Origin: Candidatus Saccharimonadota bacterium
GTDB lineage: Bacteria; Patescibacteriota; Saccharimonadia; Saccharimonadales; UBA4665
NCBI GenBank assembly: GCA_002952755.1
Contig: CP025011.1
Span: 480,001 to 512,000, forward strand
Reading direction: 5' to 3'
Length of the DNA: 32,000 nucleotides
Made by a program: the position numbers and the translations under genes. Position 1 is the stretch's first letter; the number at the start of each line of letters is the position of its first letter. The notes beneath the pieces were generated by a model that was not told the origin of the DNA, ran no database searches, and worked only from the letters and a program-made list of their open reading frames with translations. Of the stretch, positions 10,448 through 29,907 are shown one piece after another.

Positions 10448-10552
10448 GGCGCCTTGCCTCACTCCCCAAGTAGAGTCAGGCATAGTGCAGCCAGACCGGT
10501 GTAAGCCGGCCTGCGTGTAACGCTCTACTTAGGGAGTGAGGCAAGGCGCCCT
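10446..10552. repeat. long inverted repeat (30-nt arms, 1 mismatch, 47-nt spacer) overlapping the ligA stop codon
   Basis: Left arm AGGGCGCCTTGCCTCACTCCCCAAGTAGAG (10446..10475). Right arm CTCTACTTAGGGAGTGAGGCAAGGCGCCCT (10523..10552). The spacer contains a CCGG-tgtaag-CCGG sub-hairpin. No T-run follows. Confidence 0.8.
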
Positions 10553-10644
10553 CCGCTATCGTAGGAACGTTGCCAGTACTTCTAGGGAGAGTTTCTCGCT
10601 ATCGGGGATGAAATTCCGTATACTTAGCACAAGAGGTAACGACA

Positions 10645-11574
10645 ATGATTAAGTACTATTTTAAGAGTTTGCGTAGCGAGCGTATGCAGGAGTTGGCTAC
10701 GTACAAACCCGGCTCTTGGGTGTATGTGGAGGCGCCGTCACACAACGAGATCGACATATTAGTCCAGAAGTTTGGTTTAACGGCAGGGCACCTGGAAGAC
10801 GCGCTTGACGAAGATGAAATGCCCCGTCTGGAAAAAGAAGGCGAACAGAGCTATATCTTTGTACGCTTTGCCTATAAAGAGCCCGATGGTACGCTGGCCA
10901 CCACGCCGTTGCTATTCATATTCAGCGGTGATTTAGTGGTAACCGTTGCACAGGTCCCGGTGCCTTCGCTCGATCTGTTTTTGAGCGGCAGGATTGCCTT
11001 TGCTACCACCCAGCGCGCCAAGCTTATCCTGCTCATTTTGCAGCAAGTAGTTGATCGTTACGACGTGTTTATTGCTACCACGAGCAAACAGATTAAGATG
11101 ATCCGTTCGCGCCTGCGCGGGCACGAGATTACCAATCAGGATTTTATCGACTTTGTGGTGATCGAAGATGAGCTGAATGAGTTCTTAAGCTCGCTGATGC
11201 CCACCAACGCTACTCTGCGGCGCCTGCTGCTCGGACGTTACATGCCGCTATTTACTGAAGATCAGGACATTGTAGAAGACTTGCTGCTCAACAACGAACA
11301 ATCCATCGAGGCTTGCAACAGCAACATGCAGTCGATCATTCACATCCGCGACGCCTATACCAGCATCAGTTCCAACAATTTGAACCGTACCATGAAGGTG
11401 CTCACGGCCGCTACGGTTATCATCGCTTTGCCCAATGTGTTTTATAGTATGTATGGCATGAATGTACCATTGCCCTTCCAGCATGAGCCTTGGATCTACG
11501 GGGTAATGAACGCCGGCATCGTGGTGCTTATCCTTTCCATAGTTGCCTTCGCTAGGCGTAAGCGGATTTTCTAG
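10645..11574 (+). CDS. corA: CorA-family magnesium/cobalt transporter
   Basis: 309 aa. YGMNV (GMN signature) lies between two C-terminal TM helices, with a large N-terminal cytoplasmic domain. Confidence 0.9.
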   Translation: MIKYYFKSLRSERMQELATYKPGSWVYVEAPSHNEIDILVQKFGLTAGHLEDALDEDEMPRLEKEGEQSYIFVRFAYKEPDGTLATTPLLFIFSGDLVVTVAQVPVPSLDLFLSGRIAFATTQRAKLILLILQQVVDRYDVFIATTSKQIKMIRSRLRGHEITNQDFIDFVVIEDELNEFLSSLMPTNATLRRLLLGRYMPLFTEDQDIVEDLLLNNEQSIEACNSNMQSIIHIRDAYTSISSNNLNRTMKVLTAATVIIALPNVFYSMYGMNVPLPFQHEPWIYGVMNAGIVVLILSIVAFARRKRIF

Positions 11575-11644
11575 CTAGTCTTTTCTTTTGCGCGCCAATC
11601 TGTTAAAATCCTCATTTGTAACCCTAGCTTGCGGATCTGCAAAT

Positions 11645-11721
11645 GGGGCATTAGCTCAGTTGGCTAGAGCGCCTGCATGGCATGCAGGAGGTCAGGAGTT
11701 CGAGTCTCCTATGCTCCACCA
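11645..11721 (+). tRNA. tRNA-Ala (anticodon GGC), CCA encoded
   Basis: Hand-folded cloverleaf. Acceptor GGGGCAT/ATGCTCC with the G3:U70 Ala identity pair, anticodon stem CCTGC/GCAGG with loop ATGGCAT, and T arm AGGAG-TTCGAGT-CTCCT. 77 nt. Confidence 0.9.
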
Positions 11722-12151
11722 TGACCGCCTTACTCCAACCCTTGTCCCAAGCAAGCGCGAGTGAGTTGATCAAGGTAGTCCGATCAGAGGCGGTCTTCGT
11801 CAGGAGATTGCCTCTGATCGTTGTTATGACCCAGCGCTGTACTCGCACCCTGGCGGTAGCTCGTGGCCAGTGACCACCCGTCCATCGATGTACAGCCGGG
11901 TAAATATCGGAATGAAGAAATAGGGCCGCCTGCTGGCAGCCTGGTAGACGTCAGGCTTGTTGAAGGGCAATCGCGGTAGCTGGATAGCATCGTCCCCTAA
12001 AATATTCGAGGCTACGTTGCACCTCCGGTGTGCAGCAAACGCCAGCCTTCTCTTACGTTCTCAGCTCCATCACAAACATGTCATTGCTTGCGTTCAGGAT
12101 ATTAGCGTCGTGAGCTTTGTGGCCGTCTACGGACAATTGTTAAGCTCACTC

Positions 12152-12180
12152 TTGACGCCGTATATACCATTATATATACT
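12152..12180 (+). promoter_or_regulatory. promoter TTGACG-N17-TATACT ending 7 nt before the antitoxin ATG (leaderless candidate); AT-rich partial palindrome in the spacer
   Basis: TTGACG at 12152..12157 and TATACT at 12175..12180. The spacer ccgtatataccattata contains TATATA-type half-sites, which could act as an autoregulatory operator. Confidence 0.45.
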
Positions 12181-12187
12181 ACGGTAT

Positions 12188-12475
12188 ATGAGTACTTTAG
12201 ATAAAACCATCATTAATATCAAGGTTAGCAAGACCCTAAAACGTGAAGCCCAGGACTTGGCTGACGAGATTGGTGTGCCTCTTACTACTGTAATAGCGGC
12301 AAGCTTGAAAGAGTTTGTTCGCAGTCGCTCGTTGACCGTGTCCGCTTTCCCTCGTCTAAGACCCGAGATTGAGCAGGAGCTTAGTCAAGCAATTGCGGAT
12401 TACAAAAACGGTAAGAATGTATCAAAGATTCTTGCTAAGCCTAGTGAAGTAGCAGATCATCTCAACTCTCTATGA
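12188..12475 (+). CDS. type II antitoxin, RelB/DinJ-like (ribbon-helix-helix)
   Basis: 95 aa. The N-terminus KTIINIKVSKTLKREAQDLADEIGVPLTTVIAASLKEFV resembles DinJ/RelB antitoxins. The stop overlaps the toxin ATG (ATGA). The longer ORF starting at 11957 is not protein-like. Confidence 0.75.
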   Translation: MSTLDKTIINIKVSKTLKREAQDLADEIGVPLTTVIAASLKEFVRSRSLTVSAFPRLRPEIEQELSQAIADYKNGKNVSKILAKPSEVADHLNSL

Positions 12476-12732
12476 ACGTTGTTTTCCATAAACGCTTCGA
12501 TAAGATGGCTAGCAAGCTTCCTCCAAAGATAAAAGCAAAGATGGTGGAGCGAATCACAATTTTTAGTAAAGATCCGCTCGACTATGCACTCAGAAATCAT
12601 ACCCTGAATACCCCATACAAAGGGAGCTATAGTATCGATATCACTGGCGATTATAGGGCTATCTATTTTTTAGTAGATGATGAGACGGCTATGTTTACGC
12701 ATATCGGCACGCATAGCCAGTTATATAGATAA
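12472..12732 (+). CDS. type II toxin, RelE/YafQ-family mRNA interferase
   Basis: 86 aa. LRNHTLNTPYKGSYSIDITGDYRAIYF...MFTHIGTHSQLY matches the RelE/YafQ pattern (H.L.G..kg..s..i..DyR.iy....GtHs.L). Confidence 0.8.
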   Translation: MNVVFHKRFDKMASKLPPKIKAKMVERITIFSKDPLDYALRNHTLNTPYKGSYSIDITGDYRAIYFLVDDETAMFTHIGTHSQLYR

Positions 12733-12969
12733 CCTATGACATTAGGGCCTACTTGACCGCGACTCCTATCGAGTTCGTCTAATTGATCGCTTTAAAACCG
12801 CTGGCCGCCCCAATTCGTGTTCGGCCGGTCTGCCACGGGTAATAGCCAAGCGTCCCGAATAGGGCAGCGTTTCTTGCGCAATGTGATTTTTCGAATCCTC
12901 ACTCAACTCATTATAGTGGAGGGTCAGAGTTGGTTTAATAGTCTTGCCCGCTGTTGTACTATTACTTGC

Positions 12970-14334
12970 ATGGAAGTTATTACACCTTGGCAAGTGGCTT
13001 GGCCGGCGTATGCGTCCCGCTATGTGCCTGACCGATTTGGCGGGCCCGTCCAGGATCGTCGCTTTGATTTAATTGAGGTTGGTCCTGATGGTAATGAGTC
13101 GACGACTTTCGTGGCTCATATTCCAGGAGTAGAAGCTACTAGAAACACGCACCGCATTCTCGTACATGGCGATTCGGTAGCCTGGGGGTGTGATGACGAC
13201 GAGCAGGCCAACCGATTGCTGCCAAGAGATCGCTTTCCCATACAACTCCTTGGTAATCTCGCACTTTTGGACAACGGGAGCTATACGAGTTTCGAGCATG
13301 CGGTAAACGGCATGACAACGGACCAGGACCGCGTAGGCAGACCAGGTAGAAACAGTTTGGCTGTATTCCCTGAAGTGCTTTCACGTGTTAAGCCGCATTC
13401 AGTGGTGGTACACCTTGGGCTGAACGATCTTAATAATGAGATACGCCGTACCGCAGTCGAGTCTGCAGCTGGCGTTAGTCGGAACTTGGACGCGATTATT
13501 ACGCATAATGCTAGGCAGCGGTTGGAACGGAATCGTGTACAAAACGTAGTCGTGCTTGGCCCGTCACCGATCGTGCCAACGAGGCGTTTCGGCCGTCTCC
13601 AACTTGGCGATTATTTCTCTGAGCAATCGATTGCCGAATCGTTTTCTTTGGGCTCGGAGATTCGGAAGGTGGTGCATAGGTATGACGATCGCCATCCAGA
13701 CGTTTCTTTTTCCTTCACCCAAGTTAATTTCCATGGTCATAAGCGATGGGAGGGGTTGCATGAGCATGCAGACGGTCTGCACCTAGGCGCGCTCGGTCAT
13801 GCGGCTATTGCCCAGTCGGTTGCCCATGCTTTGTTGCGGCGTCCCGGGACGGAACTCATGAATGTTATGAATGGTTTTGAGGCGTACGATCCGAAGCTTT
13901 TAGATCATATGCTTCCGGCAGCTAACACGCTCCAGTACCGGGCTATGGTTAGTGCCGGTGGTCTGCCGCCTATGGGCGGGCCAGTGGAGCAATATGTCTG
14001 GCCAAGTCCACGTATTGTCGGCCCGGATCAACTCGTTTTGGACCATGCGGGTAACCCATTTTCTGAGGGATACCTGCTTGTGCGGGCCAAACCTAGCTGG
14101 GAAGAAAAACACCCTCATCCCATAACCCCCGATCAGTTGAAAGATTCATGGCAGCAGCCTGGCCTACGCATTTCTCGCCAAGCTCAGTCGCAGCTACCGC
14201 TACCTCCACGACCAGAGCTTCCGGTCCATATACGGGGGCGGGCGGGAAAACCTCTAGGTATCGGTGATTATAAAGATGATTTTCAAAGAGGAATGGCTCG
14301 CCTACTGGAGGGCGAAGCTCCACTACCGGGCTAA
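12970..14334 (+). CDS. SGNH/GDSL-family hydrolase with ~160-aa Pro-rich C-terminal extension
   Basis: All four SGNH blocks are present: I VHGDSVAWG (GDS at 13168..13176), II AVNGMTT, III HLGLNDL and V DGLH (13771..13782). The start is uncertain: the ORF maximum is 12817, and the first ATG giving protein-like sequence is 12970. Confidence 0.65.
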   Translation: MEVITPWQVAWPAYASRYVPDRFGGPVQDRRFDLIEVGPDGNESTTFVAHIPGVEATRNTHRILVHGDSVAWGCDDDEQANRLLPRDRFPIQLLGNLALLDNGSYTSFEHAVNGMTTDQDRVGRPGRNSLAVFPEVLSRVKPHSVVVHLGLNDLNNEIRRTAVESAAGVSRNLDAIITHNARQRLERNRVQNVVVLGPSPIVPTRRFGRLQLGDYFSEQSIAESFSLGSEIRKVVHRYDDRHPDVSFSFTQVNFHGHKRWEGLHEHADGLHLGALGHAAIAQSVAHALLRRPGTELMNVMNGFEAYDPKLLDHMLPAANTLQYRAMVSAGGLPPMGGPVEQYVWPSPRIVGPDQLVLDHAGNPFSEGYLLVRAKPSWEEKHPHPITPDQLKDSWQQPGLRISRQAQSQLPLPPRPELPVHIRGRAGKPLGIGDYKDDFQRGMARLLEGEAPLPG

Positions 14335-14414
14335 AGGGGGATGCTTTCCGCAAGCAAGAGGTGCATATTTACCGCACGTTTGTTACACTAGAACAGCTAT
14401 AAGGGGGGTTACGC

Positions 14415-14825
14415 ATGAAAAAAGATCTTTCTGGCATTTGGCAAAGCCACTACCGTTTCACCAGCAGCTCTCGTGCTGGCGAATATGAGGCCTGGCACTA
14501 TCTAAAGGTCCACCAAAAAGGCAACCAGCTGGTGGCTGAGAGCCTACCCGATGTGAATCATTCCTATTTGATATTACGTTTATCCCGGGACGGGGACGTG
14601 CTTACCGGCAGCTGGCAGGAAACGACAGACCCCGAGGGCTACTACAAGGGTTCTACGTATCACGGCGCCATTCAGTTGGTCATGAACGACGATGGCGGTT
14701 TTTCTGGCAAATGGGTTGGGGTTGGCAAAGAGCGGGTTATTAAGACTGGCCCGTGGAAGTTGACCTACATTGGCGAAGAGCTACCAGCCGGGACCAAAGC
14801 TCCGGAAGTGGCGGCGGTACCTTAG
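14415..14825 (+). CDS. hypothetical protein (136 aa)
   Basis: Strong Shine-Dalgarno (aagggggg) 6 nt upstream. The composition looks beta-rich. No motif recognised. Confidence 0.6.
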   Translation: MKKDLSGIWQSHYRFTSSSRAGEYEAWHYLKVHQKGNQLVAESLPDVNHSYLILRLSRDGDVLTGSWQETTDPEGYYKGSTYHGAIQLVMNDDGGFSGKWVGVGKERVIKTGPWKLTYIGEELPAGTKAPEVAAVP

Positions 14826-14884
14826 GCTCCCTCTGTTGCCATACGAATCCTTGCTGGGTGGACGCTCTCATTGTTATAAGTACG

Positions 14885-15511
14885 CTAGCGCCTTGCCAGT
14901 TCTATAATTGTCGCTTCAGTTATACGAGGGGGGCTGGAGGTGTCGAATCTATGCCAGGTTAGACCATGCTGCCTGGTTCCAAAGGGAAAAATAGTGATAT
15001 CTCTTTCTTCTAAATGTGCCACGTGAATGGCGGGGGAAAGTATGTCATCTGGTACCTCACCACCAAGAACAATTAAGCCGGTATCAGCTTCAACGAGTTC
15101 TGCCTCACACTCATCATATCTGTCAAAGTCTGGACCGCTGTTTGCCAGCATTACTTTACCGGCACCCTGAATAGTCCTATGGACGTTGAGGTATCGCGGG
15201 AAAGATTTATCGGGATAGGCGGAGTCCGTATGTAATCGCCCGGTCCCTTTATGAGTCCAGTCGCCAGAAAAAGATTGCGCGTCTAGCACACGCTCCCCGA
15301 CTATGTATCTTTCGCCCGTAATGCCGCTATATAGGGTGGCTACGTTTTGCGTAAGGATAGAGTAATCGCCTGCGTTTGCAGCCCGAATAACGAAACCCGG
15401 AAGGCCTATATCGTATATTTGCCTGAGGGCATCGTGCAGTTCGTCTTGAGTTGCCTCGAGTAGCGGCACCTCGCTTATAGGGGAGCGACTAGAGTGTCCG
15501 AGAATTAACAT
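14885..15511 (-). CDS. hypothetical protein (208 aa)
   Basis: Clean ORF convergent with 14415..14825. It contains an H-x-D (LHTDSAY) plus later His residues, which alone does not justify a dioxygenase call. Confidence 0.55.
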   Translation of the reverse strand: MLILGHSSRSPISEVPLLEATQDELHDALRQIYDIGLPGFVIRAANAGDYSILTQNVATLYSGITGERYIVGERVLDAQSFSGDWTHKGTGRLHTDSAYPDKSFPRYLNVHRTIQGAGKVMLANSGPDFDRYDECEAELVEADTGLIVLGGEVPDDILSPAIHVAHLEERDITIFPFGTRQHGLTWHRFDTSSPPRITEATIIELARR

Positions 15512-15643
15512 GCACGGCTATTATGGCATACTTACCAATGGCAGCGCGATGACTTGCAGAATAGCCTAGAGGTTACCAATTGTGCTAATCTGTTTTTATC
15601 CCGTGCTGCTGCCTGGCTGGATATCTACGCTGCGGGGTTTTTC

Positions 15644-15719
15644 GGGGCATTAGCTCATTTGGTAGAGCGCCTGCATCGCACGCAGGAGGTGGGCGGTTCG
15701 AATCCGCCATGCTCCACCA
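15644..15719 (+). tRNA. tRNA-Ala (anticodon CGC), CCA encoded
   Basis: Hand-folded. Acceptor GGGGCAT/ATGCTCC (G3:U70), anticodon stem CCTGC/GCAGG with loop ATCGCAC, and T arm GGCGG-TTCGAAT-CCGCC. 76 nt. Confidence 0.9.
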
Positions 15720-15849
15720 AATATAAACAAACGTTTATATTTTATCTGTAAAACGACAGATGCCGCCACAGCAATGTGACGGATTTTTGTATGGTACGTA
15801 TGCATGCTTACCTTTTAGATACATACTATATTTATGTATAGTATTAAAA

Positions 15850-16521
15850 ATGAATTCTCTAGTCGGCGAGGCGTATCTTGCTAGCAGCCAGAAACGTAAG
15901 TTTGAATGGTCGATAGCTATGGGTATAACACCGCCTGCTGCTGTTCTTATGGCGTTAGGCGCGAGCGCATTTTATGCCGAAAATCGTATTAATCCCATTT
16001 TTGTGCAGGAAAGAGACGGCCAGGGAGTGCAGCCTATCAAACTGTTTAAATTACGTTCATTCCCTTCTCTTGAAGACCTGGCCGACCAAAGTGCTGGCGA
16101 TACTGATCCGCGAGCTAGCCGTGTCGGCCGCATCTTGCGCAAATCAAAGATTGACGATCTAGCTGCTCTCTGGAATTTTTACAAGGGAGAACTTGCCCTT
16201 GTTGGCCCGCGTCCGATCGTACCTCAGGAGACCCTCGATACTTATGCTCTACTATCACCTACGGATAGGGAAGATTGGGTACATGCCAGAACTATTGCAC
16301 GGGCGGGCGCTGTCAGTGCGTTCAATAAGGTGGGCCGAACGCTAGAACCAGCATCGGAAAAGTATCTACTAGCTAGAGTAGAAGCTGATATTACCTATGC
16401 CGAGCAAGCTAGTATTGTGGTTGATACCAAAATAATGCTTGATGCTGTAGGAGGCGCACTGGCGCGTGTGATTGGAAGGACATTCAATTCGCCCCCTTCG
16501 CCTCCACTGGATGGACTATGA
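15850..16521 (+). CDS. small monotopic phosphoglycosyl transferase (bacterial sugar transferase, PglC/WbaP C-terminal type)
   Basis: 223 aa from ATG 15850. There is one N-terminal hydrophobic helix with a PP break (WSIAMGITPPAAVLMALGASAFY). Family blocks are NPIFVQERDG..QPIKLFKLRSF and DPRASRVGRILRKSKIDDLAALWNFYKGELALVGPRP. The upstream ORF extension to 15760 is not protein-like. Confidence 0.8.
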   Translation: MNSLVGEAYLASSQKRKFEWSIAMGITPPAAVLMALGASAFYAENRINPIFVQERDGQGVQPIKLFKLRSFPSLEDLADQSAGDTDPRASRVGRILRKSKIDDLAALWNFYKGELALVGPRPIVPQETLDTYALLSPTDREDWVHARTIARAGAVSAFNKVGRTLEPASEKYLLARVEADITYAEQASIVVDTKIMLDAVGGALARVIGRTFNSPPSPPLDGL

Positions 16522-17453
16522 GGCCCGTGTTGTTAGGACCAACTCCCATACGTGTGCTTGCCTTGGAAGCTGGCGGTCCTGCGAGCACGTCTGCTTTACT
16601 CCAGCTGAGAGAGAGCGGCCTTTCGGTAAAATTAATCGCCGCCGATATGGACCCGAATTGTGCGGTTAGTTCACTAGCTGATGAGTTTTATCGCGTATTG
16701 CCGGCCTCTAATGTAGCATATATCGATGAAGTGATTGACCTTATAACTCGCTGCCACGTCGATGTAGTGTTGCCGAGCTTCCATTTTGCTATGAGGGAGT
16801 TTGCAGAACTAGATCACCCAGCGTTTGTGAACGATTTCACCGCTGGGCTAGTATGTCAGGATAAATGGCAGTTTTATAAGTGGTGTCGCGACAATGGATA
16901 TAGCGTTCCTGAGACGACATTGCTGGCAGGTAGCAATAAGATTAAGGCAAGCAAGCTATATGCTAAGCCACGGTATGGCGTAGGTTCAAAAGGAAATTTT
17001 GCCTTAGCTCATCAGGAACTGAAGAATATTGCTGATTATTTGCAGCATCATGATGAGTATATTATTCAAGAATTTATTGATGGTGAAATGTGGGTCGTCG
17101 ATGCCATGCGATGCGATAGACAATTCCTAGGGTGTACCTCAGCGCGTGTGATCACCCAGCGTGCTGGTCATGCGGTTGCCGTAGAGATTATCACTAACCC
17201 TGAACTTGCCGCCCTCGCCGAAGACGTTCTAAACAAGCTGGATTATGAAGGACCTGCTAACTTTGATGTAATGCGTAGCACCGGGGGAGATTATTTTATC
17301 CTAGAACTCAACCCTAGATTTGGCGGCACTATCTGCTTTGCTCATGCTGCAGGAATCAATTTGCCAGCTTATCTCTTGAGTAGGCAGAAAAAGTTTCTTG
17401 GCGCGCCTATCGAGGGGCGGTATTCCCTTAGCAGCAACGTCGTGCGGCTCTAA
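16518..17453 (+). CDS. ATP-grasp domain ligase (311 aa)
   Basis: A pre-ATP-grasp Rossmann-like N-terminus (RVLALEAGGPA...KLIAADMDP...ADEFYRVLP...VDVVLPS) is followed by KWQFYKWCRDNGYSVPET, YAKPRYGVGSKGNF, IIQEFIDGEMWVVD and FILELNPRFGGT. The ATG overlaps the PGT stop (ATGA). Confidence 0.8.
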   Translation: MRPVLLGPTPIRVLALEAGGPASTSALLQLRESGLSVKLIAADMDPNCAVSSLADEFYRVLPASNVAYIDEVIDLITRCHVDVVLPSFHFAMREFAELDHPAFVNDFTAGLVCQDKWQFYKWCRDNGYSVPETTLLAGSNKIKASKLYAKPRYGVGSKGNFALAHQELKNIADYLQHHDEYIIQEFIDGEMWVVDAMRCDRQFLGCTSARVITQRAGHAVAVEIITNPELAALAEDVLNKLDYEGPANFDVMRSTGGDYFILELNPRFGGTICFAHAAGINLPAYLLSRQKKFLGAPIEGRYSLSSNVVRL

Positions 17454-17634
17454 TCACAAGAAACCGGTAGCGTCTTGCCTTTATCTTCACGTCCTCTATA
17501 GTCCACCAATTACCACTGTGTATATTTGATTACCTTGACAGCCTTGGGCCGGTTGAGAGCCGCGATGCACCCTGGTGGGCCGAGGTTTTCTGTCATTTTA
17601 GCTGTATAGTAATAGTCAAGCAAAAAGGAGGGTT

Positions 17635-17844
17635 ATGACGGAAGGATTACATGAAAATTCAGGAGCTTTAGACGACGAGAATGAAGGCCAGACTCCCAAT
17701 GGCGCGAGCGATGGACAAGTAAGGGGTTTTACTATCGTTGACAGTCCTTACGGGACAACTATGTATACGGGCGGTGCAACGTCAGTTAGCCTCGAAGTGA
17801 GTATAAAAATGCCAGAAGAACCTGGCGGAGATGCCCCGGCTTAA
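17635..17844 (+). CDS. small acidic protein/peptide (69 aa), orphan
   Basis: Strong Shine-Dalgarno aaaaggaggg 3 nt upstream. An extended -10-like TGTATAGT lies ~25 nt upstream. The N-terminal half is acidic and disordered, and the C-terminal half is Thr/Ser/Glu/Lys-rich. Coding status is unverified. Confidence 0.45.
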   Translation: MTEGLHENSGALDDENEGQTPNGASDGQVRGFTIVDSPYGTTMYTGGATSVSLEVSIKMPEEPGGDAPA

Positions 17845-17905
17845 GACTTGTATTGCCTGTCCAGGCTTCGAGCAAACTCTGGGGTGAGCTGCTATACTAG
17901 CACCT

Positions 17906-18622
17906 ATGTATCAATACCTCGTTGGCATGGCGATTGCGGGGTTCGTGTGGGCGCTGTTCTTTGTTGTGCGGAGAGATTTGCGGCGCACTATGCTGTGGGG
18001 TGGGCTCCTGTATGTTGCGTTGCTGAGCGTGGGCTTTGTGGCATACAGGCTGCTCTTCCATGACGTGACGCGCTCGATCACGCCAGGATATTGGTCGCCG
18101 CCAACGCTACTTGAATTGCAGAGCAAGACGCATGGCTACGGCATTGAGGACGCACTCTTTATGTTCTTTTTGGCTGGTAGTGCAACCTGTTTGTACGAGA
18201 TATGCTGCCACAAGAAACTCGAGTCTGTTGACCTTAAAAACCCCCGTATAAAGGCTATGTTGTTGGTCGTTTTGGTCAGCGCTATCGGTTCACTCGTGCT
18301 TTATAAGCTTTTTTATATGAATGACATATATTTGCTGATCGATTCCAGCCTATTTGCAGCCCTGGCTATATGGTGGATGCGGAGAGACTTGATTGTACAG
18401 TCGGTTGTGGGCGGCATATTCTTCGTAATCCTTTATATTGCAGAGTTTTCTGTCTTTACCCATATATTTTCGCATTTTATTGCCAACTACTATCATTTGC
18501 GAGCTACGAGTGGCGTCTTGCTGCTGGGGATTCCGTTGGAAGAGTACCTATATGGGCTAGCCTTTGGTCTGTTCTGGACGCCACTCTATCGCTTTATATA
18601 TGGGCTACAAAGAGCAGACTAG
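17906..18622 (+). CDS. lycopene cyclase domain-containing membrane protein (two-repeat, CrtYc/Yd-like)
   Basis: 238 aa and polytopic. It has two copies of the family's acidic motif at helix starts: GYGIEDALFMFFLAG and LGIPLEEYLYGLAFGLFW (PxEE-type). Confidence 0.7.
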   Translation: MYQYLVGMAIAGFVWALFFVVRRDLRRTMLWGGLLYVALLSVGFVAYRLLFHDVTRSITPGYWSPPTLLELQSKTHGYGIEDALFMFFLAGSATCLYEICCHKKLESVDLKNPRIKAMLLVVLVSAIGSLVLYKLFYMNDIYLLIDSSLFAALAIWWMRRDLIVQSVVGGIFFVILYIAEFSVFTHIFSHFIANYYHLRATSGVLLLGIPLEEYLYGLAFGLFWTPLYRFIYGLQRAD

Positions 18623-27033: not shown

Positions 27034-29907
27034 ATGAAACGATACAACCCTAAAGAGATTGAGCCCAAGTGGCAGCAAAAATGGTCCGAAGATAAGACGT
27101 ACGAGGCTTCGGACGATCCAAGCGGCAAACCCAAGAAGTATATTTTGGAATTCTTCCCATACCCGAGCGGAGCCGCCATGCACGTGGGCCATGTGCGCAA
27201 CTACACCATTGGGGACGCCATGAGCCGCCATGCACGCATGATGGGTTACGACGTACTGCACCCGATGGGTTGGGACGCCTTCGGCTTGCCAGCTGAGAAT
27301 TATGCGATTAAAACCGGCATCAGCCCCAAGCAGGCGATTGCCGAAAATACTGGTCGCTTTAAGCAGCAACTGACTCAAATGGGCTTTGGCTATGATTGGT
27401 CGCGCGAGTTTGCCAGCTCAGACCCGGAATATTACCGCTGGACCCAGTGGTTCTTCCTACTGCTGCACAAGCGTGGCCTTGCTTACCAAAAAGAGAGTTT
27501 GCAGTGGTGGTGCCCCGTGGATAAAACGGTGTTGGCCAACGAGCAGGTCGAAAACGGTAAGTGCTGGCGCTGCGGCTCGGAGGTGGAGAAGAAGTCGCTC
27601 AAGCAGTGGTTCTTCAAGATTACAGAGTATGCCGAGCGATTGGAAAAAGATCTAGACGACGTTGATTGGAGCGACTCCATCAAAGCCATGCAGCGCAACT
27701 GGATAGGCCGCAGCAAGGGTGCTGAGGTGGTATTCGCTATGGATGGATCTGACGAAAAAATTACGGTGTTTACGACTCGGGCAGATACGCTGTTTGGTGC
27801 CACCTTCTTAGTGCTCGCCCCTGAGCATCCGCTGCTCAAGACGATTACCGCGCCGGAGCACCGCGCCCAAGTCGAGAATTATCTGCAGAAAACACGTAAT
27901 AAATCGGATATCGAGCGCCAGGAAACCAATCGGGAAAAAACCGGCGTCTTTACGGGTGCATATGCTATCAATCCCGTGAATGGCGAGAAATTGCCCATTT
28001 GGACGTCTGACTACGTATTGGTGGGCTACGGCACGGGCGCAATCATGGCGGTGCCAGCCCACGATGAGCGCGACTGGGCATTTGCCCAGGCCTTTAAGCT
28101 GCCAGTTGTCCCGGTAATCGAGCCCGAAACGGGCACACCGCAGGAAAATCCGGAAACACGCTTAAGTATTGTGGCTATTGTGCGCAACCCACGCACCAAT
28201 GAATATCTATCGATTAATTGGGGGAAGCTCGGCGGTAACCTGTTCATCGGCGGTGGCCGCGAAGCAAATGAAGATATTGTCGAGACGGCTAAGCGGGAGA
28301 TTGCCGAAGAAACCGGCTACCGCAATCTGAAGCTGGTCGCGCAAACTGATCGCATACACCATCACTACTTCGCCCATAGCAAAAATGTGGCTCGCTATAT
28401 CGAAGCCTATGGCCTGTTGTTTGATCTCGAAGACGAGACGCGCGATGAGCAGAGACTGGAGCCGGACGAGCAGGGCAAGTTCACCGTTGAATGGTTGCCG
28501 GCGTCAGCAGCTGAGGCGGTTATTACCGATGAGTTGCATACCACTTGCTATCGCCTACTAGTAAAAGGAGAGTGCTACCACGGCGAAGGCATCATGATGC
28601 ACTCCGGCTCATATGACGGTTTGCGCTCCAGTGAAGCACGTGAGAAAATCGTTGCCGATCTTGAAGCGAAGCACCTCGGCAAGGAACGGGTTAATTACAA
28701 AATGCGCGACTGGCTGATTAGCCGCCAGCGTTACTGGGGTGCGCCGATCCCGATGATTCATTGTGCGAAGGACGGCGTGGTTCCCGTACCTGAAGACCAA
28801 CTACCGGTGTTGTTGCCTGATATGCAAAGCTACGAGCCAAGCGGTGATGGCCGCAGCCCATTGGCCCGCGTGCCGGAATTTGTGAACACAACGTGCCCCA
28901 TATGCGGCGGCCCGGCCGAGCGCGAAACAGACACTATGGACGGCTTTGCCTGCTCTAGCTGGTATCCGATGCGCTTTGCCGACCCCCGTAACAACGACCG
29001 TCCATTCGACGCCGTAAAGGTGCAGCGTTGGCTGCCGGTAGATTATTATATTGGCGGTGCAGAGCATGCAGTTATGCACCTTTTGTATATCCGTATGTGG
29101 ACCAAAGTGATGCAGGACGAAGGGTTGGTCGACTTTGGCGAACCTTTTACCGGTCTGCGCAATCAGGGGATGATCTTGGCCCCGGACGGTCGCAAGATGA
29201 GTAAGAGCTGGGGCAATGTTATCGCGCCTGATGATCTTATCGAGCAAGGCTACGGTGCCGACGCCATTCGCGTTATGGAGCTCTTTATCGGTCCCTGGAA
29301 TCAGTCGGCTAACTGGAGCGTAGAGGGCATGGGCGGCAGCTTCCGCTTCCTGCAGCGGGTGTGGGCACTCAGCCAGGACTACCTCACGAAAAATGAGCCA
29401 GCCAACCCGGCAGACGATATTGCAATCAAGCAGGTAATGCATCGGACCATCAAAAAGGTGAGTACCGATATGGAGGCAATGGGCTTCAACACCGCAATTG
29501 CCGCGGTTATGGAGGCAGTCAACGAACTCTATCGACTGAAGGTCACCGTGCCGTTTGGTGCTGCTCCAGAGGCCTGGCGCTGGGCGATTGAGTCACTCTT
29601 GCTACTACTTGCCCCATTTGTGCCGCACATCACTGAGGAGTTATGGATGCAGCTTGGTCACACCGATTCTATCCATCTTGCCAAGTGGCCGGTGTATGAA
29701 GAACAATACCTTACAAGCGACAGGATGACGATCGTCATTCAAATTAACGGCAAGGTACGCAGTCAGATCGAGGTCAGTTCATCCGCCACCGAAGAAGAAG
29801 TCACGGCTCAAGCCAAAGAAGACAAAAAAGCCGTCGTTTATTTAACCAATCAGACTCCTAAAAAAACTATCTACGTACCCGGCAAGCTTGTTAATTTCGT
29901 TCTTTAG
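27034..29907 (+). CDS. leuS: leucine--tRNA ligase (957 aa) carrying an internal Nudix-like insertion
   Basis: HIGH variant HVGH, ZN-1 CPVD...CWRCGS, CP1 editing motifs TTRADTLFGATF and AVPAHDERDWAFA, ZN-2 CPICGG...C, KMSKS, and the C-terminal domain. Confidence 0.95.
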   Translation: MKRYNPKEIEPKWQQKWSEDKTYEASDDPSGKPKKYILEFFPYPSGAAMHVGHVRNYTIGDAMSRHARMMGYDVLHPMGWDAFGLPAENYAIKTGISPKQAIAENTGRFKQQLTQMGFGYDWSREFASSDPEYYRWTQWFFLLLHKRGLAYQKESLQWWCPVDKTVLANEQVENGKCWRCGSEVEKKSLKQWFFKITEYAERLEKDLDDVDWSDSIKAMQRNWIGRSKGAEVVFAMDGSDEKITVFTTRADTLFGATFLVLAPEHPLLKTITAPEHRAQVENYLQKTRNKSDIERQETNREKTGVFTGAYAINPVNGEKLPIWTSDYVLVGYGTGAIMAVPAHDERDWAFAQAFKLPVVPVIEPETGTPQENPETRLSIVAIVRNPRTNEYLSINWGKLGGNLFIGGGREANEDIVETAKREIAEETGYRNLKLVAQTDRIHHHYFAHSKNVARYIEAYGLLFDLEDETRDEQRLEPDEQGKFTVEWLPASAAEAVITDELHTTCYRLLVKGECYHGEGIMMHSGSYDGLRSSEAREKIVADLEAKHLGKERVNYKMRDWLISRQRYWGAPIPMIHCAKDGVVPVPEDQLPVLLPDMQSYEPSGDGRSPLARVPEFVNTTCPICGGPAERETDTMDGFACSSWYPMRFADPRNNDRPFDAVKVQRWLPVDYYIGGAEHAVMHLLYIRMWTKVMQDEGLVDFGEPFTGLRNQGMILAPDGRKMSKSWGNVIAPDDLIEQGYGADAIRVMELFIGPWNQSANWSVEGMGGSFRFLQRVWALSQDYLTKNEPANPADDIAIKQVMHRTIKKVSTDMEAMGFNTAIAAVMEAVNELYRLKVTVPFGAAPEAWRWAIESLLLLLAPFVPHITEELWMQLGHTDSIHLAKWPVYEEQYLTSDRMTIVIQINGKVRSQIEVSSSATEEEVTAQAKEDKKAVVYLTNQTPKKTIYVPGKLVNFVL
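28120..28581 (+). other. Nudix hydrolase-like domain nested within LeuRS (residues ~363-516)
   Basis: Exact Nudix box G-x5-E-x7-R-E-U-x-E-E-x-G-U, read as GGREANEDIVETAKREIAEETGY (28252..28320). Strand-like RLSIVAIVRNPRTNEYLSINW precedes it. The insert is in frame, with no stops or frameshifts. Confidence 0.75.

Follow-up and report, generated by a model that had tools for sequence, protein, structure and literature searches.

Overlapping genes for a divergent small phosphoglycosyl transferase and an ATP-grasp ligase, upstream of a conserved lycopene-cyclase-domain gene, in a Candidatus Saccharimonadota bacterium

Positions 480,001 to 512,000 of contig CP025011.1 (assembly GCA_002952755.1, Candidatus Saccharimonadota bacterium) form a 32-kb stretch, here called the window, to which all coordinates below refer unless another locus is named. 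Four open reading frames (ORFs) in it, all on the plus strand and close together, are the subject of this analysis: a small PglC-type phosphoglycosyl transferase (PGT), an ATP-grasp ligase, a 69-amino-acid (69-aa) ORF called p69, and a membrane protein with a lycopene-cyclase domain, called LycC. The Pfam family assignments of the PGT, the ligase, and LycC are matches far above chance. An earlier note, made from the sequence alone, placed the ORFs at coordinates that the ORF list bears out, and it read them as one compact pathway that starts a lipid-linked glycan and ligates something to it. That reading survives for two of the genes. The PGT and ATP-grasp genes adjoin each other in 4/4 loci, the ligase belongs to a suitable family, and its relatives lie in glycan clusters in 9/9 contexts inspected; as a pathway of four genes, the reading is not supported. 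The real unit appears to be a two-gene PGT and ATP-grasp module, which plausibly starts a lipid-linked sugar and adds an amide.

The two genes overlap by 4 nucleotides (nt). The ATG of the ATP-grasp gene (16518-16520) and the TGA of the PGT gene (16519-16521) share the ATGA that the earlier note had reported, as direct reading of the sequence confirms, and an overlap of this kind implies translational coupling, at least on sequence grounds. How faithfully do the two genes keep together? Close relatives, sought in 5.8 billion protein clusters, number only three for the PGT and two for the ATP-grasp (55-62% identity). In every distinct locus that carries a close PGT (4/4, window included), an ATP-grasp orthologue is the next gene on the same strand, with a gap of at most 10 nt; from PGT stop to ATP-grasp start the distance is 1, 7, and 10 nt in loci L003, L008/L009, and L010, respectively. 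A scan of JGI metagenomes for further copies of the pair returned two distant ATP-grasps alone.

As judged by its profile matches, the window PGT is a genuine but divergent member of the Bac_transf family. Its match to Bac_transf (PF02397; E 3e-27, 95.7 bits, cutoff 27) spans profile positions 1-175 of 179, and PglC of known structure (PDB 8e37) matches at 8.7e-11. The right length of the protein is 223 aa, since homologues begin at the Met encoded at 15850; a longer reading of 253 aa from 15760 is unsupported. The active-site center of PglC is marked by an Asp-Glu dyad, Asp93-Glu94 in Campylobacter concisus (PMC10186338). In the window PGT, KIDDLAAL stands at the position of SLDELPQL in the PglC and WbaP structure sequences; this departure, already pointed out in the earlier note, is kept in 3/3 close homologues. 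The dyad is thus Asp102-Asp103, with the nucleophile Asp retained and Glu replaced by Asp in 4/4 subfamily members, none of which has the Asp-Glu pair. Outside the window's own cluster, an Asp-Asp dyad occurs only in P0068, P0106, and P0155 among 149 other representatives. Ala takes the place of the Pro of LDELPQ, AGAVSAF replaces PGxTGxAQ, and the protein carries an N-terminal extension (20 aa) plus two insertions after GPRP. These insertions mark a wider clade of 31 representatives at E <1e-30, found by an exhaustive profile search of 1.84 billion representatives. Arg97, Arg147, the nucleophile Asp102, and VGPRP are invariant in the alignments. None of the NCBIfam PGT equivalogs (WbaP, WcaJ, EpsZ, RfbP, and others) scores above its cutoff, the best being TIGR03025 with 96.9 against 295.6 bits. 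A single hydrophobic segment (residues 22-40, window 15913-15969), the one candidate for the re-entrant membrane helix, contains GITPPAA, with a Thr-Pro-Pro break.

About 25 representatives in the closest PGT clade are longer (400-450 aa), with an N-terminal PGT and a C-terminal domain of ~230 aa (P0075, P0081, P0088, P0093, P0094, P0096, P0100, plus about 18 more). This domain has no Pfam or PDB sequence match and no likeness to any window protein. Its invariant Asp-rich motifs (R..DD.VD, FN.W, and GY..D...DL..DY..G) we take to be reminiscent of the DDxxD of class I isoprenoid synthases.

The ATP-grasp protein groups, by its best-scoring models, as a divergent member of the PRK12767/PylC-like group. 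In Pfam, ATP-grasp_3 (5.6e-18, 66 bits) and ATPgrasp_Ter (2.3e-12, 47 bits) are both above cutoff, and PylC-like_N (7e-6, 26.5 bits) is slightly below its cutoff of 27. In NCBIfam, the PRK12767 "carbamoyl phosphate synthase-like" set scores highest, headed by NF009402 (100.3 bits against a cutoff of 218). Models of rival clades all score far below their cutoffs: RimK with 22.6 of 143 bits, PylC with 19.4 of 248, and an archaeal Ddl-like model with 33 of 500. A blastp comparison with the window's own Ddl gave no significant match. The ATP/Mg residues K116, K150, Q184-E185, D250, E263, N265, and R267 vary little or not at all in the alignments. The sole PDB sequence match is 2PN1 (phmmer 5e-17), an uncharacterised structural-genomics protein labelled "carbamoylphosphate synthase-like". 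For the AlphaFold2 (AF2) model, with a predicted local distance difference test (pLDDT) score of 86, the best Foldseek matches are 2PN1 (1.7e-21, template-modeling score about 0.78) and PylC (1.7e-18), followed by biotin carboxylases, PurK, and L-amino-acid ligases. With PylC (3-methylornithine--lysine ligase, PDB 4FFL) and 2PN1 it has a three-domain ATP-grasp architecture in common, though identity is 18-21%. Most relatives carry GRR on the N-terminal, substrate side, where the window ligase has EAGGPAS. Taken together, the curated models, the solved relatives, and the ATP/Mg residues point to a small-molecule carboxylate-amine ligase rather than a Ddl, RimK, or graspetide enzyme.

What kinds of genes surround the more distant ATP-grasp relatives? 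Nine contexts were inspected, in which the relatives are 23-30% identical to the window ligase, and 9/9 are polysaccharide or glycan clusters. On plasmids, the neighbors are glycosyltransferase (GT), DegT, nucleotide-sugar dehydrogenase, and HAD genes (Haloarcula, L029); perosamine synthetase and AsnB (a deltaproteobacterium, L030); a small PGT, a pyridoxal phosphate (PLP) enzyme, and GNAT before the ligase and DegT after it (Sphingobium, L031); an aminotransferase, a small PGT overlapping the ligase, HAD, GTs, and a flippase (Priestia, L036); and dTDP-sugar genes, DegT, GNAT, and a PLP enzyme, then the ligase and a GT (Escherichia coli, L037). On metagenome contigs, they are a PIG-L deacetylase, PHP, and GT2 (L032); a small PGT immediately upstream of the ligase (L033); a DegT gene immediately upstream, with Wzx and GTs (L034); and a PglD-type acetyltransferase upstream and overlapping (L035). 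A canonical small PGT lies immediately upstream of the ligase in 2/9 contexts (L033 and L036). Two of these loci have features of their own. L033 (2881-4468) holds an isolated unit of canonical PGT and ATP-grasp on a low-GC (32%) contig, between ldh and a divergent lacI-type regulator, and so stands alone as the window pair does. In L032 (2869-7085), the ATP-grasp relative has the window's AGGPA N-terminal motif and is flanked by a fusion of a response regulator to a PIG-L deacetylase and by a PHP phosphoesterase and GT2, a gene set that suggests acylation of a de-N-acetylated sugar.

The arrangement of a small PGT beside a glycan-modifying ATP-grasp is, in fact, already known. In Bacillus cereus ATCC 14579, the ATP-grasp Pyl adds 2-oxoglutarate to a UDP-amino sugar to give UDP-yelosamine, and it adjoins the small PGT Q814Z7 (sequence similarity network cluster 24), the predicted user of the modified sugar (PMC11626204). 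The window pair resembles that system in having an ATP-grasp gene beside a small PGT, the two ligases being likened by their arrangement and described role. Priestia filamentosa plasmid p3 (L036) and L033 have the same order as the window, PGT and then ATP-grasp; the frames overlap in L036 and are 19 nt apart in L033. Their ligases are of the same PylC_N plus ATP-grasp_3 type and are the best-scoring non-orthologous relatives (85-102 bits), but identity to the window ligase is 25-27% and their PGTs are canonical (LDELPQ/LDELPE, PGxxGLAQ). L036 goes beyond the window in also having an aminotransferase, a HAD hydrolase, GTs, and a flippase. The window PGT itself is like Campylobacter PglC (PDB 8E37 and 8G1N) in being a single Bac_transf domain of about 200 aa, in having one candidate N-terminal helix-break-helix segment (GITPPAA), and in the alignment of the Arg...Asp active-site stretch and the GPRP nucleotide motif. 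It differs in having Asp-Asp for Asp93-Glu94, Ala for the Pro of LDELPQ, AGAVSAF for PGITGLAQ, the 20-aa N-terminal extension, the two post-GPRP insertions, and a far less hydrophobic membrane segment; the GLLLP and aromatic-box features of the diNAcBac enzymes are missing. The traits that set the present variant apart are the conserved Asp-Asp dyad, the altered sugar-side motifs, the weak membrane segment, and the reduction to two genes.

Is the pair part of the resident chromosome, so to speak, or an addition to it? The G+C content at third codon positions (GC3) splits the four genes: it is 0.402 for the PGT, 0.455 for the ATP-grasp, and 0.386 for p69, against 0.586 for LycC and 0.52-0.64 for backbone genes. 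L014 (the same locus as L004, GCA_964508535.1), from a Saccharibacteria metagenome-assembled genome (MAG), is syntenic with the window, which places the window on a Saccharibacteria chromosome. Its gene order is M48 peptidase, p330, LigA (80% identity), a variable segment, and LycC (59%), followed by an inserted block, p318, an alpha/beta hydrolase, a Mur ligase (68%), and Ddl (72%). LycC keeps the same backbone position there without the PGT/ATP-grasp pair. Because GC3 splits in this way and L014 has LycC without the pair, the boundary between accessory and backbone DNA falls between p69 and LycC; the PGT/ATP-grasp/p69 block is accessory, by composition and by synteny.

How might such a pair work? 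Given the families of the two enzymes, their catalytic residues, their adjacency, the contexts of their relatives, and the accessory status of the block, the substrates, the order of the reactions, the acceptor lipid, and the fate of the product may be pictured as follows. With moderate confidence, we favor a horizontally acquired, minimal glycan-initiation module in which the PGT loads onto polyprenyl phosphate an amide-decorated sugar that the ATP-grasp has made or completed. The soluble ATP-grasp would use ATP to activate a carboxylate as the acyl phosphate and then form an amide with an amine. Two kinds of product can be envisaged: an amino sugar that carries an acid or amino acid as its N-acyl group, 2-oxoglutarate being the acid that Pyl attaches in B. 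cereus, or a uronic acid joined to an amino acid through an amide. The PGT, held at the cytoplasmic face of the membrane by its presumed re-entrant segment, would then move the sugar-1-phosphate via Asp102 from the nucleotide sugar to polyprenyl phosphate, with release of UMP. Small PGTs generally favor modified UDP-sugars, and sugar modification after transfer occurs too, for example by WreQ (PMC11626204); with that precedent, the ligase could alternatively act after transfer, on the lipid-linked sugar. The overlapping frames suggest cotranslation of the PGT and ATP-grasp and perhaps also a physical complex in which the PGT receives the finished nucleotide sugar from the ligase, comparable to the bifunctional PGT fusions, a described class (PMC11626204). 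Extension, flipping, and attachment would be encoded elsewhere in the genome.

Several observations weigh against this module. (i) The ATP-grasp orthologue of L001/L002 (62% identity) has no adjacent PGT, and an EamA-like membrane protein comes next. (ii) Only five distinct loci with an ATP-grasp orthologue are present in the databases searched, and the co-occurrence statistics are thin for that reason. (iii) The gene-family inventory of the window, which covered ORFs of at least 110 aa, holds no recognizable carotenoid or sugar-nucleotide gene, and no aminotransferase, dehydratase, sugar dehydrogenase, GT, or flippase is recognizable in the 32 kb. The B. cereus operon, by contrast, includes a dehydratase and an aminotransferase for the amino sugar and has its ligase upstream of the PGT; the window has the PGT first, then the ligase, and no other recognizable sugar gene. 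(iv) The exchange of Glu for Asp in the dyad and the altered PGxTGxAQ region are subfamily traits. (v) The hydropathy maximum of PGT residues 22-40 (19-residue Kyte-Doolittle) is 1.57, compared with 2.7-3.3 in canonical small PGTs, so the label "monotopic" that the protein was first given rests on homology. In the clade relatives P0067-P0074, the corresponding segment is Ala/Gly/Pro-rich, with maxima of 1.4-2.0. With the dyad, the PGxTGxAQ region, and the membrane segment all changed, the activity or substrate class of the PGT may differ.

A bolder form of the proposal, which we hold to be doubtful, is that the pair is self-sufficient: an Asp-Asp PGT and an ATP-grasp would make a new lipid-linked, amide-decorated monosaccharide from a housekeeping nucleotide sugar of the UDP-GlcNAc or UDP-MurNAc-derivative type, through a PGT branch in which the dyad, the sugar-side motifs, and the membrane association have all changed.

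If no sugar-tailoring genes are recognizable in the window, might the pair instead modify cell-wall precursors? D-Aspartate ligase acts on UDP-MurNAc-pentapeptide, and the ATP-grasp could likewise couple an amino acid to a precursor of peptidoglycan or of a linkage unit, with the PGT starting the linkage unit of a wall polymer. UDP-GlcNAc and UDP-MurNAc derivatives would surely be present in a reduced Saccharibacteria genome; a Mur ligase, Ddl, and D,D-carboxypeptidase are present in the same 32 kb; and one weak database relative of the ligase (P0028) is labelled a D-aspartate ligase. We nevertheless give this idea only an outside chance: the Mur ligase and Ddl are backbone genes, found in L014 too without the pair, the ATP-grasp is not significantly similar to the window's Ddl, and the nine inspected contexts of its relatives are polysaccharide clusters and not murein clusters.

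Slightly less probable still, to our minds, is an unconventional role for the PGT. It might have little or no activity and serve as a scaffold that brings the ligase to the membrane, or it might be an enzyme with a changed donor or acceptor. That an Asp-Asp dyad so rare elsewhere is conserved throughout the subfamily speaks for such a role, as do the replaced PGxTGxAQ, the weakly hydrophobic segment, and the failure to reach any NCBIfam PGT cutoff. The exchange of Glu for Asp is a conservative one that keeps the carboxylate, however, and the nucleophile, both arginines, and GPRP are unchanged. Members of the subfamily in four loci, moreover, share 55-60% identity and have kept their reading frame intact, a sign that their function is under selection.

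What about LycC? Pfam recognizes only its residues 139-230 as Lycopene_cyc (PF18916; 7.7e-15, 55.7 bits against a cutoff of 27), and its two halves are homologous to each other (hhalign probability 93%, E about 3e-7). Two PxEE-type motifs had been proposed. The one in the C-terminal half, IPLEE (E212-E213), is strict; its N-terminal counterpart, GIED (E81-D82), is degenerate and has no Pro. The two acidic pairs are equivalent in position and invariant or nearly so and, because the halves are homologous, it is broadly fair to speak of two motifs. From what is known of the family, an acidic pair per repeat would suit acid catalysis at a double bond of an isoprenoid, the chemistry of lycopene cyclases. 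Other invariant motifs include RxDL and ITPGYWxPPTL. The predicted model has 7 helices (pLDDT 84), and no PDB fold matches it at E <1. No NCBIfam model matches LycC, hence none to TIGR03462 if that model is in the release. With the heterodimeric or fused lycopene cyclases CrtYc/CrtYd (PF18916), LycC shares two homologous repeats of 3-4 helices, each with an acidic motif (GIED, PLEE). It differs from them in that Pfam does not recognize its first repeat, in belonging to a Saccharibacteria/Patescibacteria clade with invariant motifs of its own, and in its surroundings: no carotenoid gene is recognizable in the window, as the earlier note had said and as holds among the ORFs of the inventory, and none is recurrent beside LycC in 15 loci, whose flanks were compared by clustering. 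A literature search found no paper tying the lycopene-cyclase domain to Saccharibacteria.

LycC homologues (n = 21, 36-59% identity) come mostly from Candidatus Saccharibacteria, Saccharimonadales, or Patescibacteria MAGs (species-representative genomes), and remoter relatives (28% identity) come from Desulfobacterales-type MAGs. LycC is a conserved, lineage-wide backbone gene of Saccharibacteria that lies outside the module. Some of the loci deserve separate mention. In L014 (10811-11671; L004 8808-9671), a UbiA-family prenyltransferase is convergent with LycC. It is the first of four genes in a reverse-strand block that is accompanied by an ABC transporter, none of which is in the window; this adjacency of UbiA and LycC is limited to L014 among the loci compared. 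One Saccharimonadales MAG carries tandem LycC paralogues (L018, 9336-9941 and 10001-10696) with 29% and 39% identity to the window LycC. Four loci with LycC at 36-42% identity (L017, L020, L021, and L022) are from MAGs labelled Methanosarcinales archaeon, Nanoarchaeota archaeon, and Chlamydiae bacterium, labels that are probably binning or labelling errors.

Could LycC nonetheless belong to one four-gene pathway with the PGT, the ATP-grasp, and p69, acting on the polyprenyl carrier or on another isoprenoid of the same product? The genes are same-stranded and close together, the PGT and LycC would, from family knowledge, both handle isoprenoid lipids, and relatives in the PGT clade are fused to the uncharacterised domain with Asp-rich motifs. 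We judge such a pathway very unlikely, and the check for co-occurrence in related genomes, which the earlier note had proposed for it, failed. In 15 LycC-bearing loci (flanks compared by clustering), no PGT or ATP-grasp is nearby and no neighbor family recurs; the pair in L003 has no LycC or p69 after it; syntenic L014 retains LycC without the pair; p69 has no homologue in the loci fetched; and the GC3 of LycC is unlike that of the pair. The ATP-grasp gene and p69 are 180 nt apart, with a -10-like element in between, and another such element precedes LycC. Because the four genes fail to co-occur, action of LycC on the polyprenyl carrier is only a guess.

The remaining ORF, p69, has a strong Shine-Dalgarno sequence, just as first described (AAGGAGG, 3 nt before the ATG). 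Its product is acidic (isoelectric point, 4.05; 12 acidic versus 2 basic residues), and its codon usage scores +0.105 per codon in its own frame, whereas the five other frames score -0.42 to -0.80; the PGT and ATP-grasp behave comparably. Searches by tblastn found no homologue in 35 fetched loci, and Pfam, NCBIfam, PADLOC, and PHROG searches gave no family match. Three other contigs carry p69, but they are 99.99-100% identical to the window and hence offer no polymorphism for a ratio of nonsynonymous to synonymous substitutions (dN/dS). p69 probably belongs to the accessory block as a genuine gene, and in the explanation proposed here it would be a strain-specific small protein unrelated to the pair. 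The idea that it is what remains of a gene found downstream of the ligase in other loci was rejected, as tblastn shows no similarity to the EamA-like or other neighbors of the orthologues. Likewise, the 180-nt gap gave no Rfam match to a riboswitch or small RNA, and its fold is weaker than that of shuffled sequence (z +2.3). Least credible of all is that the ATP-grasp acts on p69, as a precursor of the graspetide type of ribosomally synthesized and post-translationally modified peptide (RiPP) or as a LysW-like acidic carrier: p69 is acidic, coding-like, low in GC3 as the pair is, and just downstream of the ATP-grasp, but 180 nt separate the two, the ligase groups with the PRK12767, PylC, and 2PN1 small-molecule ligases (with RimK at only 22.6 bits), and no counterpart follows the ATP-grasp orthologues, L003 having a reverse-strand gene there and L001 the EamA-like one.

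The coordinates of these features are collected in Table 1. Three -10-like elements hint at separate, partly leaderless transcripts: TGTATAGT occurs 8 nt before the ATG of the PGT and again 25 nt before that of p69, and TGCTATACT (17890-17898) lies 8 nt before the ATG of LycC. The first might conceivably be the promoter of a leaderless or near-leaderless PGT/ATP-grasp transcript, a weak inference from its position; in promoter-motif pattern scans, the counts of -10-like elements are not above chance expectation.

Table 1. Features of the accessory block and of LycC, in window coordinates
Feature	Position	Strand	Evidence	Remark
tRNA-Ala(CGC)	15644..15719	+	ARAGORN; Rfam tRNA 63.3 bits	Left landmark of accessory block, no functional part of module
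-10-like TGTATAGT	15835..15842	+	Pattern scan	8 nt before PGT start codon
Small PglC-type PGT, 223 aa	15850..16521	+	Pfam Bac_transf, PDB PglC 8e37, alignments, hydropathy	
ATGA stop/start overlap, PGT/ATP-grasp	16518..16521	+	Direct sequence reading	
ATP-grasp, putative carboxylate-amine ligase, 311 aa	16518..17453	+	Pfam, NCBIfam, alignments, AF2 model, Foldseek	
Intergenic spacer after pair	17454..17634	+		Second TGTATAGT at 17603-17610, p69 Shine-Dalgarno at 17625-17631
Orphan acidic p69, 69 aa	17635..17844	+	Codon usage, GC3	
LycC membrane protein, 238 aa, two homologous repeats	17906..18622	+	Pfam PF18916, internal repeat, synteny, GC3	

The block lies within a longer segment (10448-17905, LigA to LycC) that is variable relative to L014 and in which most genes have low GC3. 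Besides the PGT, ATP-grasp, and p69, it holds CorA, a YafQ-type toxin pair (called in L011/L012), a GDSL hydrolase, and two orphan ORFs. Two tRNA-Ala genes (GGC, 11645-11721, and the CGC gene of Table 1) are 81-95% alike. For the GDSL hydrolase (12817-14334), the mechanical ORF is 505 aa from a GTG, and gene callers on identical contigs give 454 aa; since they start later, the N-terminal 51 codons are probably untranslated. Is the PGT/ATP-grasp/p69 block an island integrated at the tRNA gene, or perhaps a defense system? The first idea was rejected: downstream there is no second copy of the tRNA-Ala 3' end and hence no sign of an att-like site, there is no integrase, and the genes have no PHROG match. 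An anti-phage defense system was set aside in view of the lack of any PADLOC match. Farther along the window, a leucyl-tRNA synthetase of 957 aa (27034-29907, plus strand) has a NUDIX domain inserted directly after its editing domain (Pfam 5e-10, residues 378-493), with an intact Nudix box, GGREANEDIVETAKREIAEETG, at 407-428.

A small PGT commits its cell to a single surface glycan, and for few of these enzymes is the substrate known. A natural Asp-Asp PGT with a single ligase would be a very small system in which to probe the second residue of the dyad, and the pair could also be used to probe how a sugar-modifying enzyme is coupled to a PGT. The two-repeat LycC, conserved across Saccharibacteria, is a possible lead to a role for the lycopene-cyclase domain outside carotenoid synthesis. 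Neither the Asp-Asp PGT pair nor LycC answers a long-standing question alone. Saccharibacteria live attached to host bacteria, and a strain-variable envelope module might affect host contact; if the amide-decorated monosaccharide is indeed made, it would be a strain-variable surface determinant of these episymbionts.

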